This document shows, piece by piece, positions 56,532 through 63,630 of a stretch of 64,000 nt of DNA. The stretch comes from a virus (Duplodnaviria; Heunggongvirae; Uroviricota; Caudoviricetes): the IMG/VR virus record IMGVR_UViG_2693429637_000011; one strand, 5' to 3'. The first letter of the stretch is position 1, and each line of letters starts with the position of its first letter. A program made the position numbers and the translations under genes. Under the pieces are notes generated by a model that saw only the letters and a program-made list of their open reading frames with translations, had not been told where the DNA came from and searched no databases.

Positions 56532-57239
56532 ATGAAAACATTCGCAGAAAGACTAAATGCCGCCATGAGTTCAGCCGGGTTGTCACAAGCACAACTTGCA
56601 GACATGGTGGGGGTATCACAACCAGCCATACAAAAGATGTCATCTGGTAAAACAACCGGATCACGTAAAATGGTCGAATTAGCCAACGCGTTAAGAGTTC
56701 GCCCTGAATGGCTAAGCTCTGGTATAGGGTCAATGAGACCACAGAGCGCAGAAGAGCCATCTAATGCTCGGGAATCATCTTTAAAAGCTATCGCCTGGGA
56801 TGATCATCAAAATGATAATGAAGAATTTGTTGCGCTCCCCCTTCTAAATATTTCACTTTCAGCTGGCGGAGGAAGTTGTGCATTGGAGGAGTCCGCAGAA
56901 TTCTCTCTAGTTTTTAGGCGCTATTACCTGAAAAAAATGGGAGTTCCAGAAAAAGCGGCAAAGTTGGTCAGGGTTGTTGGGCAAAGCATGGAGCCAACAC
57001 TCCATGATGGTGATGTGGTGGGGGTAAACACGCAAGATACGAGCATCAGGGATGGTAAAACATATGCAATTTGCCAAGCTGATTTGTTAAGGGTAAAAAC
57101 GCTCATAGCCACGCCAACATCGGTAATTATCAGATCGATAAACCGCGAAGAGTATCCTGATGAAGTAATGAACAGAGAAGAATTCTACAAAAACGTAAGA
57201 ATCATAGGGCGAGTGTTCTGGTCATCACATAGCTGGTAA
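56532..57239 (+). CDS. cI: CI-like prophage repressor (HTH plus S24 LexA-like peptidase domain)
   Basis: N-terminal HTH; C-terminal ...VGQSMEPTLHDGDVV... and conserved Lys region. Confidence 0.85.
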   Translation: MKTFAERLNAAMSSAGLSQAQLADMVGVSQPAIQKMSSGKTTGSRKMVELANALRVRPEWLSSGIGSMRPQSAEEPSNARESSLKAIAWDDHQNDNEEFVALPLLNISLSAGGGSCALEESAEFSLVFRRYYLKKMGVPEKAAKLVRVVGQSMEPTLHDGDVVGVNTQDTSIRDGKTYAICQADLLRVKTLIATPTSVIIRSINREEYPDEVMNREEFYKNVRIIGRVFWSSHSW

Positions 57240-57392: not shown

Positions 57393-57659
57393 TTAATTAC
57401 ACAGTCGCATATCCTGAAGTAACACATCTATAGCTAACTTCACAGCGAGATCATCCAATTCATCATGGTGAAGCACTCGGATCATTCCCGCAATAGCATC
57501 TGCTGAAATAGCTTCCCCAGTAGCAATAACCTCAAGCAACGACACCCCTAGAATTTCGACTACCCGCTGGTGCAACACACCAAATTCCCCTTCGATTAAC
57601 ATGCAATCACCCATAACAATCAGCCTTTCCCCCTTGAAAATATCACGCGGATACCACAA
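57393..57659 (-). CDS. Hypothetical protein between cI and N, opposite strand
   Basis: 88-aa ORF; start abuts OL region. Confidence 0.3.
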   Translation of the reverse strand: MWYPRDIFKGERLIVMGDCMLIEGEFGVLHQRVVEILGVSLLEVIATGEAISADAIAGMIRVLHHDELDDLAVKLAIDVLLQDMRLCN

Positions 57660-57947: not shown

Positions 57948-58253
57948 ATGGTAACCATAATCTGGAAAGAATCCAAAGGTACGGCAAAAAGCCGCTATAA
58001 AGCTCGCAGGGAAGAACTTATTGCAGAGCGGCGCAGTAGTGAAAGACTGACACGGAAGATTGCGCTAAAGATCTCTGGTTGCGTCGGAGCAGACAAAGCA
58101 GTATCACTCGGAAGCCTTCGCTGCAAGAAGGCAGAAGAAGTCGAGAGTAAACAGAACCGTATTTACTACCGCAAACCACGCAGTGAAATGGGTGTGACTT
58201 GCTCAGGCCGCCAGAAACAACGCGGAAAATCAATTCCGGCTTATTACGATTGA
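57948..58253 (+). CDS. N: N-like antitermination protein
   Basis: Arg-rich N-terminus (AKSRYKARREELIAERR); C-terminus ...GVTCSGRQKQRGKSIP resembles lambda N; RBS aaaggag. Confidence 0.7.
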   Translation: MVTIIWKESKGTAKSRYKARREELIAERRSSERLTRKIALKISGCVGADKAVSLGSLRCKKAEEVESKQNRIYYRKPRSEMGVTCSGRQKQRGKSIPAYYD

Positions 58254-58258
58254 GGTTA

Positions 58259-58543
58259 ATGATGAAGTTCAAATTGAACGATGAAGTTAAATGGTCAAGC
58301 TCATCAAACGGTGTAACGAAGGTAAAAATCGGGTTTATCGTCGAGGTGATTCCTCCTGGTGTCAACGTAAAAAAATTCGAACTAGGCCGTCTGCTAGATG
58401 CACCTGGCCTTCCGAGGAAAGAAGAGAGCTATATAGTTTGTGTAGGTTCAAGACCCGGATCTCGTGCCAAGCCAAAATATTACTGGCCGCGAGTTAATAA
58501 CCTGCGTCGATTACAACAAAAAACTTGCGCCCTTAAAACTTGA
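58259..58543 (+). CDS. Hypothetical early protein
   Basis: 94-aa ORF, RBS gagg, directly after N. Confidence 0.4.
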   Translation: MMKFKLNDEVKWSSSSNGVTKVKIGFIVEVIPPGVNVKKFELGRLLDAPGLPRKEESYIVCVGSRPGSRAKPKYYWPRVNNLRRLQQKTCALKT

Positions 58544-58680
58544 AATTCTTCAGGCCGCCGGAAAAATGCAGCTTAAACTGGACGAATTCATCGACTGTAT
58601 GGATGAAATGAATAAAGCAGTTCAGAAGCTTAAAGAGCTGACCGCCTGATATTAATAAATTGCAACTACCGGAGTTAACT

Positions 58681-59040
58681 ATGAATGAAACAGAACTGAA
58701 GCACATTATCGCCCTGCTTCTGGAAGATGCCAGACAGGTTTATCGACTTAGCCCAAATTCCGCAACGCAGGAACGCATCCGGATAGCGGAAACAGCACTG
58801 AAACAGGACAATGGAAACGGCATATCCAAATTTAGCGCCGCCAGTGAAAATGAAGTAATAGAAATAAACAGCAATATCAGCGACAGTTGCGTCGCTTACA
58901 GCCACCAAATAATTCGTGTAAGTGCAAGAATAATGGAAGTGATGGCAAGTGAGCTTGAAAAGAACAACATCAAGCCCACTGATTGTTGTTTAAGAACCGT
59001 AATGAACGTTATTTATTACTCGATGTTCCGAAGTCGCTAA
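58681..59040 (+). CDS. Hypothetical early protein
   Basis: ATG after RBS ggag; 119 aa. Confidence 0.4.
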   Translation: MNETELKHIIALLLEDARQVYRLSPNSATQERIRIAETALKQDNGNGISKFSAASENEVIEINSNISDSCVAYSHQIIRVSARIMEVMASELEKNNIKPTDCCLRTVMNVIYYSMFRSR

Positions 59041-59218
59041 CAGCGTCGAGTTTTTCATTAAAAAATGATTCAAATGCATCGTAAAATACGGCAATAGCAC
59101 CGCCCTTATCTACCGCGGCAGGAACTGCCTTTTGAGGTATATCTTTCTCCGTAAATTGTGTGTTGTAAGTATCGACAGCCAGCCGCATCAGAAACATCAC
59201 TTTTTCTTCTTGTGTCAT
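59009..59218 (-). CDS. Hypothetical protein on opposite strand within pL operon
   Basis: 69-aa ORF convergent with 58681..59040 (32-bp overlap). Confidence 0.3.
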   Translation of the reverse strand: MTQEEKVMFLMRLAVDTYNTQFTEKDIPQKAVPAAVDKGGAIAVFYDAFESFFNEKLDAVSDFGTSSNK

Positions 59219-59674
59219 AAATTCACTCTCCTTACGGGGTTTGTAGTTGAGGAGTTCTCCACGGGTGAGGTGGAGATCGTGCGCCGGACACGGGTGAGTT
59301 CCTGCACTCTCAGTTTACTGAACAGACATTACCCTGAAAGCCAGGGTACTACACGAAAGCGCGAGGCGAAGACTCTTTCCCATAGAAGGATTGTCGTTAG
59401 ATTTCTTCGACCGTGCGCTTCCGGTTGTGAATAACAACATTGCTGTGTGTAACCCTTGGCGGATATCGGTTTGCCGATTGCTGATGTCCGCCCTTTTTAA
59501 AGTGAATTTTGTGATGCGGTGAATGCGGCTCAGCGCACGCGGAACAGTTAAACCGACAGGATGTCACGGAAAGTCATCGTCCCCTGACCCGGCGTTAATT
59601 GTTAACTGGTTAACGCCACCTGGAGGCACCAGGCACCGCATCAACAAAGTTCATTTGTGAAAATGGAGATAATT

Positions 59675-59896
59675 ATGATTGCTCATCACTTCGGAACTGA
59701 TGAAATACCACGTCAGTGCGTGACGCCTGGCGATTATGTTCTTCATGAAGGTCGGACATATATCGCTTCAGCAAACAATATTGAAAAGAGAAAACTCTAT
59801 ATTCGTAACTTCACAACAAAAACATGCATTACCGACTGCATGATTAAAGTTTTCATCGGGCGCGATGGCTTACCCGTAAAAGCAGCGTCGTTGTGA
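59675..59896 (+). CDS. Hypothetical protein (AT-rich cargo)
   Basis: ATG with ggag 8 bp upstream; 73 aa. Confidence 0.35.
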
Positions 59897-59979
59897 CGAG
59901 TAATAAAATACACCTTCCATATCTGTAACAGACAAGCCGAAATAAAACCGCATTAATTATCAATCACGGAAAAATCAAA

Positions 59980-60366
59980 ATGAAAGAACTTGCGCAAAAT
60001 GAAATATTTTCCAAAACCAGTCCTGATGCAATAAATGAACTCAAAGAAATTGCAGAACGCATCAGTAAAATATGCAAAGAATACAAAATCGACTTTGTAT
60101 TTTCTTTTTCAGTGCTTACAGAAGTTGGAAATAACGAATATAAGGACAGTCGTTTTGTTTTATGTGGGTTAAATGGCAAAACACCAAGCCCATATATTCA
60201 TGCTGCACGTGAAGTTGTCAGAAGCAACATTGGAGTACAACAAATCCATACACTTGCACAGGCTCTTGAGTTTGCAAGAGAAAATTCTGAGTGCGACTGC
60301 CCTGAATGCCAGCACGAAAAGGGAAAAACAACTCACAAAACAGCAAACCAGGCAACCTTCCACTGA
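59980..60366 (+). CDS. Hypothetical protein with C-terminal CxC...CxxC motif (AT-rich cargo)
   Basis: 128-aa ORF; ECDCPECQH motif. Confidence 0.4.
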   Translation: MKELAQNEIFSKTSPDAINELKEIAERISKICKEYKIDFVFSFSVLTEVGNNEYKDSRFVLCGLNGKTPSPYIHAAREVVRSNIGVQQIHTLAQALEFARENSECDCPECQHEKGKTTHKTANQATFH

Positions 60367-60473
60367 AATAAAAATCCGGCAGCGCAGGCTACCGGATTTC
60401 TCCCTGCGTCACCGTATTCGGAGAAATCAGACAAAGGGCCGCTAATTCTAATCCAGCCAGAGGTTTAAATACA

Positions 60474-62546
60474 ATGAGCGCTGATAAACAGACTTTTGCA
60501 CTACACTGCGAAGCAAAAAACGATAAAGTCAGAAAACGCCTTGGCATCAAAGGCGGTTTTTTCTGGACCGAGGCCAGAAAACTTTCTGTCGCAGTTTCCC
60601 GCTGCATTGCAGCCATGGACGATGCAGGCTACGACGAGGATGATTTCAAAAAACCCGTTCGCGTAAATTTCCCCGTCGTGAATGACCTTCCACCGGAAGG
60701 CGTGTTTGATACTGAATTCTGCAACCGCTATGAAAAAGGCGGTAACGATGGCATCACCATGATGGCTATCCCCTTCGATGACAACATCAACGGTGAAGAT
60801 GCCACAACTGCTGGCGATGACAACGATAACCTGGACGGAACTATTCCGGATGATGTGGAGAAAAGCGAATCCCCGGACAGCAACGATGACTGTTCTGAGT
60901 GTGAAATTCCCGTCGCCACTCTGAGCCTTACTCATCGCTTCCTTCACCTCTTCTTATTCAGCAAAGATGAAGATGGAAAATACCGGCATCATGCCACACC
61001 AGAACAACGCAATAACGTGATCCGTATGGAGATGGACACAGAGGACAGTTACCTTCAGAGCCTGCTTACTGCTGTGCGCGCCGCGCATCATGAACTGGAT
61101 AAACTGACGAACTATCACCTTAGTCGCCTGGCTGAATCTGTAGGGAAAGCATTCCCCCACTCTGCAAATCATCGCATCAGCCCGGCTGAATTCGACAAGT
61201 TCATTTCCACCTGGATGAAAACTGACTACCTTGATCAGGGCCTGCTGACAAAAGAATGGCAGAACGGAAATTATGTTTCAGGCATTACCCGTACGCCTTC
61301 CGGTGCTAACGCTGGCGGCGGAAATATTACCGATCGTGGTGAAGGATTCAAACATGATAAGACATCACTCGCACGAGATGTAGCCACCGGCGTTCTGGCC
61401 CGTTCAATGGATGTGGATATTTATAACCTGCACCCAGCACACGCAAAACGCGTTGAAGAAATCGTGTCAGAGAATAAGCCGCCCTTTTCTGTTTTTCGCG
61501 ACAAATTTATCGCCATGCCCGGTGGGCTGGATTATTCCCGCGCCATTGTGGTGGCTTCCGTGAAAGAAGCACCAATCGGCATTGAGGCCATCCCGGCACG
61601 CGTGACTGAATATCTCAACAAAGTGTTGACCGAAACCGATCACGCTAACCCGGATCCGGAAATCGTGGAAATTGCCTGCGGTCGCTCATCAGCACCGATG
61701 CCGCAGCGCGGAACAGCAGAAGGAAAACATGGCGATGAAGAAAAGCAACAAACATCGGACACAATGGCTAATGAACAGGCAGCGCCTGAATCAGTGGAAG
61801 AAATTCCAGTTAAACATAATGAGGACACGCAATCACTGGAAAATGTCTCATCTGTAGAAACGAAATACCAGGAACTGAGGGAGGAACTCAATAAAGCCAG
61901 GGAAAACATCCCCCCAAAAAATCCAGTCGATGCCGACAAATTACTGGCTGCCTCGCGTGGAGAATTCGTTGAAGGCATCAGTAACCCTGCTGATCCGAAG
62001 TGGGTGAAGGGGATCCAGACTCGCGACACTGAGGACCAGAATCAGCCCAAAGTGGAACAAATTGCCCCAGAAGCGGGACAAAACAGCCCGGATACGCAAC
62101 AAAACGGGCCAGAAGAGCAACAGCCAGGGCCAGTAATGCAACAGGAAGTGGAAAAGGTTTGCACCACATGCAGTCAGAACGGTGGCGGCCATTGCCCTGA
62201 CTGTGGTCCAGTAATGGGAGATGAAACTTACGCTGAAACTTTTGGAGAAAATGACGCCGCTGATGGAGAAGACTCAGCACAAACTGAGGAGAAGATCATT
62301 CAGGAAAACTCTGTTGATGCCGCTCAGGAGGGCGAAACCGTTGTTCAGAACGAGCCAGGCAGTGATACGTCCGGCGATGACGCCAATTCTGAGCCAGTAA
62401 CTCTCGACTGGAAAAGACAGCTCGTGATTGCCGCCGTCTATGGTTTGTGCGCCAACCCCGCATGTATAGCCACAGCGCCAGCAATCCCTGATATCGCCAT
62501 CATGATTGCCAACAGGCTTGAAAATTTCGAAGGTGATAAATCATGA
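60474..62546 (+). CDS. Large acidic protein (690 aa) of unknown function immediately upstream of gam
   Basis: RBS agagg; long acidic low-complexity tracts; [15 protein letters not shown] cluster; hydrophobic C-terminus; stop overlaps gam start. Confidence 0.55.
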
Positions 62547-62839
62547 ATGCCTGGCTTATCCCCGATCGCATTGAAGAGCAGTCATGGGCACGACACTACC
62601 AGCAAATTGCCCGTGAAGAAACTGAAGCTGAGCTGGCAGACGACCTGGAAAAAGGTCTGCCCCAACACCTGTTTGAATCGCTATGCATCGATAATCTGCA
62701 ACGTCACGGGGCCAGCAAAAAAGCTATTTCCCGTGCATTTGATGACGATGTCGATTTTCAGGAACGCATGGCAGAACACATCCGCTACATGGCTGAAACC
62801 ATCGCCCGTCACCAAATTAATATTGATTCAGAGGTATAA
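62543..62839 (+). CDS. gam: Gam (RecBCD inhibitor)
   Basis: [26 protein letters not shown]...[20 protein letters not shown] near-identical to lambda Gam short form. Confidence 0.85.
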
Positions 62840-62844
62840 AACGG

Positions 62845-63630
62845 ATGAGTACAGCACTCGCAACGCTGGCAGGGAAGCTGGCTGAACGTGTCGGCATGGA
62901 TTCTGTCGACCCACAGGAACTAATCACCACTCTTCGCCAGACGGCATTTAAAGGTGATGCCAGCGATGCGCAATTTATCGCATTGTTGATCGTCGCCAAC
63001 CAGTACGGCCTTAATCCCTGGACGAAAGAAATTTACGCCTTCCCTGACAAGCAGAACGGCATCGTTCCGGTGGTTGGCGTTGATGGCTGGTCCCGCATTA
63101 TCAATGAAAACCAGCAGTTTGATGGCATGGACTTTGAGCAGGACAATGAGTCCTGTACATGCCGGATTTACCGCAAAGATCGCAATCACCCGATCTGCGT
63201 TACCGAGTGGATGGATGAATGTCGCCGCGCACCATTCAAAACCCGCGAAGGCAGAGAAATCACCGGACCGTGGCAGTCGCATCCCAAACGGATGTTACGG
63301 CACAAAGCCATGATTCAGTGTGCTCGCCTGGCCTTCGGATTTGCTGGCATCTATGACAAGGATGAAGCCGAGCGTATTGTCGAAAATACTGCATATACTA
63401 CAGAACGTCAGCCGGAACGCGACATCACCCCGGTTAACGAAGAAACCATGTCGGAAATTAACGCCCTTCTTACTTCCATGGAAAAAACGTGGGATGACGA
63501 CCTGTTGCCGCTCTGTTCCCAGATTTTTCGCCGCAACATTTACACATCTTCAGAACTAACACAGGCTGAAGCTGTGAAGGTTCTTGGATTCCTGAAACAG
63601 AAAGTCACAGAGCAGAAGGTAGCAGCATGA
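62845..63630 (+). CDS. bet: Bet (Red-beta single-strand annealing protein)
   Basis: 261 aa, near-identical to lambda Bet as recalled. Confidence 0.9.

Follow-up and report, generated by a model that had tools for sequence, protein, structure and literature searches.

The recombination protein RecE, encoded in the Rac prophage of Escherichia coli K-12, has been a workhorse of recombineering for decades. Its nuclease domain is located at residues 564-866; the N-terminal region is listed as being of unknown function in a 2023 review, and full-length RecE improves linear-linear recombination (PMC11611040). In the early-left region of Rac, sieB is located upstream and is followed by kilS, kilR, ydaE, racC, recE, and recT. 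KilS is an Hfq-associated small RNA that was predicted from RNA interaction by ligation and sequencing (RIL-seq) data and seen on a northern blot in K-12 (PMC8175672), and KilR is described as an inhibitor of cell division in two publications (PMC12482147, PMC5793797). In the Qin prophage, the small RNA DicF precedes the division-inhibitor gene dicB. DicF has no dedicated promoter and is released from a longer operon transcript; its 5' end is formed by RNase E cleavage and its 3' end by termination or by RNase III (PMC5069750). Here, we have analyzed a stretch of 64,000 nucleotides (nt), hereafter called the window, from a virus of the Caudoviricetes (IMG/VR record IMGVR_UViG_2693429637_000011), with a focus on the interval between N and gam at positions 58259-62546, which contains relatives of these elements and a gene for a 690-amino-acid (aa) protein that is homologous to RecE.

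At its end, the window covers the immunity region and the adjoining early-left genes of a lambdoid E. coli prophage, whose pL operon lies on the plus strand. As in the pL operon of lambda, N comes first and gam-bet-exo last, transcription proceeds in a single direction, and a gene for a division inhibitor is located upstream of gam. However, the division inhibitor in the window belongs to the KilR family, and a 690-aa gene derived from recE is coupled to gam. The interval resembles the early-left region of Rac in that the small RNA, its leader, kilR, the small accessory gene or genes, and the region for the RecE N-terminus have the same order and orientation, with a gene on the opposite strand upstream of the small RNA. 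The DNA identity to Rac is 83% in kilS-kilR (59413-59910, based on the K-12 annotation) and 79% in the middle of recE (61216-62061). The two differ in that Rac RecE has the nuclease domain while the window protein ends in a different, conserved tail, and in that recT and ralR are replaced by gam-bet-exo. From the homologies, architectures, and synteny observed in this analysis, we consider it likely that the interval represents the accessory part of an N-dependent pL operon, in which a Rac-type module has recombined with a lambda-type gam-bet-exo module. This accessory stretch of the pL operon is variable; an earlier note, made from the letters of the DNA, had already placed uncharacterised accessory genes between N and gam. 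From N onward, the operon would contain a 94-aa gene, a gene remnant, a convergent pair of 119-aa and 69-aa genes, the small RNA, the leader, kilR, a 128-aa gene, the 690-aa gene, and gam-bet-exo.

The 690-aa protein (60474-62546, plus strand) has all the features that the earlier note had ascribed to it, namely an acidic composition, a cysteine cluster, a hydrophobic tail, and direct coupling to gam. It has an isoelectric point of 4.58 and long acidic stretches, with 125 aspartate and glutamate residues versus 67 lysine and arginine residues. The four cysteines are located at residues 563, 566, 574, and 577 (62160-62204), the most hydrophobic window of 19 residues begins at residue 650, and the TGA stop codon overlaps the ATG of gam (ATGA, 62543-62546). 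The sole Pfam match is to PF06630 at residues 55-197 (60636-61064; E 1.2e-12, 48.6 bits, cutoff 25). In a BLASTP search, the stretch from residue 51 to about residue 600 aligned with K-12 RecE from residue 43 to about residue 555 at 51% identity, and a 1049-aa RecE from E. coli (P0115) that contains both PF06630 and PF12684 is 87% identical over residues 1-611, after which the two proteins diverge. The NCBIfam model for exodeoxyribonuclease VIII (NF007259) gave 741 bits against a cutoff of 1269, and only positions 1-598 of the 877 in the profile were aligned. No PD-(D/E)XK nuclease domain, corresponding to RecE 564-866 or PF12684, was detected by Pfam, by alignment, or by phmmer searches with two nuclease domains. 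Judged from its sequence, the protein is the N-terminal ~600 residues of RecE without the nuclease domain but with a tail of ~45 residues. In the databases, more than 100 clusters (90% identity) of such nuclease-free proteins of ~690 aa are called exodeoxyribonuclease VIII, and complete genomes of E. coli, like the sequenced phages, use this name for the gene.

The block is real, well populated, and already sequenced. With at least 80% of the query covered, it is present in 79 of 5,426 complete E. coli genomes, for example in strain AST198 with 99.9% identity. Four sequenced phages, PhiR5_2, phiSTEC1589-Stx1c, 75/02 Stx, and POCJ13, have the gene order of the window and show 90-98.5% DNA identity to it from position 58510 onward: Escherichia phage PhiR5_2 is 98.5% identical (from about 58510-58514) and the Shigella phages 75/02 Stx and POCJ13 are ~90% identical. 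The large gene is labelled "exodeoxyribonuclease VIII" or "exonuclease VII" in these phages. Its known parts are KilR, gam-bet-exo, and the small RNA of the KilS/DicF family together with the leader. As far as can be told from the sequences, what goes beyond the databases is the nuclease-free RecE N-terminal protein with an alternative C-terminus, and the convergent 119/69-aa pair as a conserved unit.

The gene at positions 59675-59896 (plus strand) encodes KilR, a 73-aa member of the family of the Rac FtsZ inhibitor, and its product would block cell division. It is identical to Rac KilR of K-12 at 66 of 73 residues (90%), matches NCBIfam NF008465 with 154.9 bits (cutoff 92), and belongs to PHROG 294. 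Coding evidence was obtained from the ratio of nonsynonymous to synonymous substitution rates (dN/dS), computed against Shigella phage 75/02 Stx. The ratio is 0.15 for kilR, 0.12 for gam, 0.06 for bet, and 0.13-0.29 over four segments of the 690-aa gene, tail included, and it is 0.39 for both the 119-aa and the 128-aa genes. For the 69-aa ORF, the coding evidence consists of homologues in other phages with 39-53% identity. The earlier note had recognized no nameable protein in the interval, which was not borne out for KilR and the RecE N-terminal region but holds for the 94-, 119-, 69-, and 128-aa open reading frames (ORFs). Because these four match only PHROG families of unknown function, the interval does not resolve into CIII, Kil, Ral, and SieB, the outcome that the note had named as speaking against it. 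No Pfam family for Ral, SieB, CIII, or lambda Kil was matched with E <= 0.1 by any ORF of at least 30 aa in the interval.

The 128-aa gene (59980-60366, plus strand; PHROG 2016) is placed between kilR and the RecE-like gene. The two genes at 59675-60366 are AT-rich, as noted earlier, with a GC content of 0.42 for kilR and 0.38 for the 128-aa gene; in sliding windows, the GC content is 0.35-0.39 over 59700-60300 and 0.45-0.53 in the flanks. The cysteine motif previously seen in one of them reads ECDCPEC in the 128-aa protein, and only its last two cysteines (C107 and C110) are invariant among 14 homologues. The family comprises 26 clusters, and all clusters with a named source are from E. coli; homologues were found only in Escherichia. 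The protein has no match in Pfam, NCBIfam, or PADLOC and no sequence match among solved structures. It was also considered as a fusion of RacC and YdaE, but there was no BLASTP alignment to RacC and a mere two-residue match to YdaE. While the Rac slot holds ydaE and racC, the window slot thus holds an unrelated gene, and across 63 loci at least seven unrelated families of small genes follow the division inhibitor and precede the RecE-like gene. RacC blocks the retron toxin RcaT, and the same retron is triggered by RecE (bioRxiv 10.1101/2020.06.22.160242).

The convergent pair consists of the 119-aa gene (58681-59040, plus strand; PHROG 2982) and an acidic 69-aa gene (59009-59218, minus strand; PHROG 2605) with an AAGGAG upstream of its ATG. 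They lie where the earlier note had placed them and overlap tail to tail by 32 nt. Neither protein has a match in Pfam, NCBIfam, or PADLOC. When the 69-aa protein was used as a query, 42 phage loci were identified, in ten of which the protein is only 39-53% identical. In every one of the 42, the 69-aa-family gene and a gene of the 119-aa family on the other strand, as identified by phmmer, share 23-33 nt at their 3' ends. Edwardsiella phage EPP-1 likewise contains a tail-to-tail pair, adjoining a repressor gene, and its homologue of the 119-aa protein is distant (23% identity, E 7e-7). The pair represents a small unit kept across phage genera. It is not always complete, since 75/02 Stx has retained the 119-aa gene and lacks the 69-aa gene, which is also missing from POCJ13. 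The 69-aa gene holds the same position and orientation as sieB in Rac, opposite to the early-left genes and upstream of the small RNA, but is unrelated to it in sequence. It would be expressed against pL transcription, so that the two partners may be expressed in opposite phage states; the promoter scan, which revealed no convincing sigma-70-like promoter for the 69-aa gene, speaks against this. The label "cell division protein FtsZ" for the 69-aa protein was rejected. It is misleading because the 90% database cluster also contains the unrelated neighbour KilR, for which "cell division protein FtsZ" is the RefSeq name. The label "regulator" for the 94-aa protein was rejected as well, because its 90% cluster contains the unrelated neighbour N.

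The two small plus-strand ORFs reported after N are both present, at 58259-58543 (94 aa) and 58464-58649 (61 aa), and share 80 nt in different frames. The former begins 5 nt past the N stop codon and matches the whole profile of PHROG 11941 (unknown function; E 3.5e-46), with no match in Pfam, NCBIfam, or PADLOC. The latter matches only the C-terminal 47 residues of PHROG 2539, a family of 229 positions. The four sequenced phages instead contain a 237-aa gene after N, the counterpart in PhiR5_2 among them, and the homology to PhiR5_2 begins at 58514, within the region of the 61-aa ORF. It is therefore probably the remnant of a longer gene, left by a mosaic junction. One A fewer in the AAAA run near 58470 (58464-58475) merges the two ORFs into a protein of 128 aa (P0206). 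Fused forms of 128 aa (P0206) and 124 aa (P0203) were each found on one contig, and the split form on more than 1000 contigs.

The earlier note considered that the interval might be a hotspot for defence or anti-defence genes. It is possible, and we entertain this tentatively, that the block is an island in which the small genes (94, 119/69, and 128 aa), and perhaps the 690-aa protein, inhibit host immunity or exclude phages. The variable slot before the RecE-like gene, its occupant RacC in Rac with the activity against a retron toxin, and the location of the 69-aa gene in the place and orientation of the Rac exclusion gene sieB are all in line with this, as are the long acidic stretches in the 690-aa protein. 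The small genes also have a narrow distribution and are under weaker constraint than gam and bet (dN/dS of 0.39 versus 0.06-0.12). However, none of the eight ORFs in the interval matched a defence component in PADLOC-DB 2.0 with E <= 0.01, nor did any in Pfam or NCBIfam, the 128-aa protein shows no similarity to RacC, and the parts that can be named act on cell division and recombination rather than on defence. Because no defence-system model matched, position is all that carries the hotspot reading of the block. For the four small genes, the idea is plausible in view of their position in the racC and sieB slots, their narrow distribution, and their looser constraint.

The stretch between the convergent pair and kilR (59219-59656) had been described as ~440 bp of non-coding DNA with hairpins and palindromes. 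It contains no ORF with a family match, as expected from that description, but carries a small RNA of the KilS/DicF family and a structured leader. The inverted repeats are located at 59458-59467/59483-59492, 59507-59521/59634-59648, and 59591-59598/59610-59617. On the plus strand, a spacer at 59238-59429 is 79% identical to the spacer between ydfC and dicF in Qin (NC_000913). It is followed by the small RNA at about 59407-59498, which has a KilS-type 5' part and a predicted intrinsic terminator that folds into a hairpin (59458-59492) with a U-run (59494-59498). The STnc100-like leader of kilR (59495-59661) ends just before the ribosome-binding site. It folds with -64.1 kcal/mol (z = -4.35 relative to shuffled sequences) into a long closing stem around two hairpins, and a consensus of 19 distinct leader sequences contains 49 pairs, most of them invariant, four with compensatory changes, and few broken.

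An alignment of the window with Rac kilS-kilR, Qin dicF-dicB, and two phages showed that all of them share the terminator stem (GGCGG...CCGCCC) together with the U-run and the next ~170 nt, which form the leader before the division-inhibitor gene, while the small RNA varies in its 5' part and inside the hairpin. The window differs from Qin in both of these variable parts and in the downstream gene, which is dicB in Qin and kilR in the window. A scan of phage contigs for the terminator-leader junction gave 112 usable copies of the cassette, with the leader shared before dicB and kilR. Besides the DicF and KilS types of 5' part, a third type occurs among them; the DicF type occurs with dicB in 69 copies and the KilS type with kilR in 24, and there are a few recombinants. 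In the window copy, the 5' part is of the KilS type and the hairpin variant is a rarer one, unlike 75/02 Stx, in which the small RNA has the Qin-type DicF 5' part. With the hairpin, the U-run, the shared leader, and a division-inhibitor gene downstream, the position and sequence of the window copy identify it as a putative ortholog of DicF/KilS. By these patterns, KilS and DicF are alleles of one cassette with a variable 5' part and a common terminator and leader, placed before division inhibitors.

The third 5' type (…CAACAACCCATGTTGATTACC…) was seen upstream of the terminator in the phage contigs L088, L093, L045, and L072, and several hairpin variants reassort with the 5' types. Furthermore, a perfect 8-nt inverted repeat connects the KilS-type 5' part (59412-59419, CGTGCGCT) with an invariant stretch of the leader (59532-59539, AGCGCACG), which could be an alternative pairing or due to chance.

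By homology, the small RNA in the window would be processed like DicF, with a 5' end made by RNase E and a 3' end made by termination or RNase III, and the long closing stem of the leader may correspond to the double-stranded RNase III substrate downstream of DicF in Qin. The terminator would serve as an internal stop in the operon that gates kilR and the recombination genes, and, going by lambda biology, N-modified polymerase should read through it.

It seems unlikely to us that the hairpin at 59458-59498 does no more than terminate transcription within the pL operon and that this copy yields no stable regulatory RNA, although several observations favour this or count against the reading given above. 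The Rfam match to DicF (RF00039) at 59444-59493 covers the full model length with 29.2 bits (E 0.0024) but is below the gathering threshold of 48, and the match to STnc100 (RF02076) at 59495-59689, which covers positions 1-206 with 27.8 bits (E 0.004), is below the threshold of 47. The promoter scan identified no convincing sigma-70-like promoter upstream of the small RNA, and its predicted 5' and 3' ends derive from an alignment with KilS of K-12. In a crude duplex test, the predicted pairing of the KilS-type RNA with the start region of ftsZ was no better in energy than that of shuffled sequences (shuffled fraction 0.81 for the window copy versus 0.057 for K-12 DicF), and the idea that the KilS-like RNA targets ftsZ like DicF was left unsupported by it. 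Moreover, KilS has few RIL-seq partners in K-12 (PMC8175672). On the other hand, the homologous RNA from Rac is seen on northern blots and has Hfq-bound partners (PMC8175672), and DicF, which is located at the same position, is cut from an operon transcript and needs no promoter of its own (PMC5069750). At least three discrete 5' types reassort with the hairpin variants but rarely with the downstream gene, which is the pattern expected of seed regions.

When an alignment of the core domain was used to scan one genome per species, 71 loci were obtained, nearly all of them titled Enterobacteriaceae; the exceptions are one Erwinia and two metagenome bins with other labels. The proteins are of three architectures. 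The first has the PD-(D/E)XK nuclease domain (about 860-1330 aa) and is followed by a RecT-family gene, as seen in 16 of 16 phage loci in IMG/VR and in all three genome loci that were scanned with Pfam (L160, L132, and L137). The second (687-848 aa) has the N-terminal PF06630 domain and the core as in the window protein, but a 3'-5' exonuclease domain of the Rv2179c-like DEDD type (PF16473) replaces the tail; PF16473 was found in nine of the ten such loci scanned with Pfam. It occurs in prophages of Klebsiella, Enterobacter, Citrobacter, Kluyvera, Pluralibacter, and others, for example at L133:6927-9419, L136:7344-9479, and L152:6888-9431, plus six others. These genes are mostly followed by excisionase- and integrase-like ORFs, as read from their N-terminal sequences without a family scan, rather than by recombination genes, and no annealase or Red gene follows them; in an independent sample of phage contigs, none of these genes was found downstream in nine loci. 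The third architecture is that of the window protein, with the conserved tail (566-690 aa). In the Escherichia type it is followed by gam, bet, and exo, in three of three phage-contig loci and in the related prophage L198, which has the synteny of the window and a RecE-like protein that is 77% identical. Five loci from other genera have tail forms followed by DUF7740 or other small ORFs and then by excisionase and integrase genes, the latter seen where the locus extends far enough, and contain no Red genes.

The three architectures imply that the N-terminal module is the constant part, and that the nuclease is exchangeable or dispensable. In the window, the 690-aa protein would act as an accessory factor of the recombination module without a nuclease of its own, and it may supply in trans what the N-terminal ~600 residues provide in full-length RecE. 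Some results count against such a role. The tail forms of the other genera occur without Red genes and the DEDD forms without an adjoining annealase, and hence the N-terminal module is not strictly tied to a two-component recombinase. In addition, neither the 690-aa protein nor a profile of its core has a sequence match among solved structures, and an AlphaFold2 model built with 18 close homologues has a mean predicted local distance difference test (pLDDT) score of only 32.

The DUF7740 proteins, of 98-106 aa, are encoded directly downstream of the tail form in L142 (9013-9306), the place taken by gam in the window, and one small ORF further away in L183 (9417-9734) and L186 (2651-2947). A DUF7740-like gene, below the Pfam cutoff, follows a truncated copy in Citrobacter braakii (L130:8841-9140).

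The conserved tail (residues 640-685; 62391-62528), the final ~45 residues of the protein, has the motif LTYxQQLTIAALQGLCANPA...DDLPxMA..LA. A search among 1.84 billion cluster representatives identified 208 relatives of the 690-aa protein, and 23 divergent representatives of 50% clusters, which are 22-65% identical to the window protein in full-length alignments, have the tail at their extreme C-terminus. It is also present in the five loci of other genera. We considered whether the last ~90 residues had been borrowed from a gene that stands alone before gam in other phages, and rejected this, as in the phage collection the tail was found only at the end of these proteins. The suggestion that the tail docks specifically onto lambda Exo, Bet, or Gam is weakened by the tail forms that have no Red genes downstream.

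The core (residues 240-415; 61191-61718) shows the strongest conservation within the family across the Enterobacteriaceae. It contains the motifs SGxNAGGGNxTDR, DFDIYN, LDYSRA, and LTExDH and has invariant D, R, and P residues and a nearly invariant H. These residues, and the retention of the core whatever C-terminal module is joined to it, would suit a nucleic-acid enzyme that acts through the core and needs no separate nuclease domain. We regard this as improbable, given that the core matches neither catalytic families in Pfam nor solved structures, that the low pLDDT makes the structure prediction unreliable, and that the RecE nuclease domain alone genetically substitutes for full-length RecE (PMC11611040). 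It is even harder to believe that the gene is a functionless, decaying leftover of recE, truncated as the lambda gam-bet-exo genes replaced the nuclease domain and recT, for although the homology to full-length RecE ends near residue 600, a mosaic junction lies close to gam, and some related loci have plainly broken copies of 353-564 aa, the frame is intact over 690 codons with low dN/dS in every segment, the tail motif is kept in divergent representatives and other genera, the ~690-aa form fills more than 100 clusters, and the stop codon overlaps the gam start.

Beyond a nuclease-free accessory of recombination, two bolder and rather doubtful proposals can be made. According to the first, the N-terminal region of RecE serves the phage on its own and needs no nuclease; it might, for example, hold DNA ends together or counter a host system. 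Evolution would then have joined it to one of three ends, either of the two nucleases (PD-(D/E)XK or DEDD) or a short tail for docking, and the tail form in the window would be a natural stand-alone version that works beside lambda Red. According to the second, the 119/69-aa pair serves temperate phages as a hitherto undescribed unit, either a switch coupled by antisense transcription or something akin to a toxin and its antidote. PhiR5_2, the record of which gives K-12 MG1655 as host, contains a natural, conserved, nuclease-free version of RecE adjoining lambda Red, so that the role of the N-terminal region is directly testable.

The flanking genes in the window are those of a lambdoid phage. 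The cI gene (56532-57239) is located on the plus strand, and cII and cro are located upstream of it on the minus strand. N, which is similar to that of phage 21, ends at 58253, before the 94-aa ORF. Downstream of the interval, gam (62543-62839; Pfam Gam, E 4.8e-65) is followed by bet (62845-63630) and by exo, of which only the start (from 63627) is included in the window, all on the plus strand. An 88-aa ORF on the minus strand between cI and N (57393-57659), for which the annotation of strain AST198 has a hypothetical gene of 69 aa, gave a match to PHROG 3946 (unknown function; E 5.6e-30); it is another opposite-strand gene within the immunity region. While this ORF is all that the window carries between cI and N, the related prophage L198, which has the same block, contains genes for a eukaryote-type Ser/Thr kinase (Pkinase) and a DUF3024 protein at this site (L198:1371-2417).

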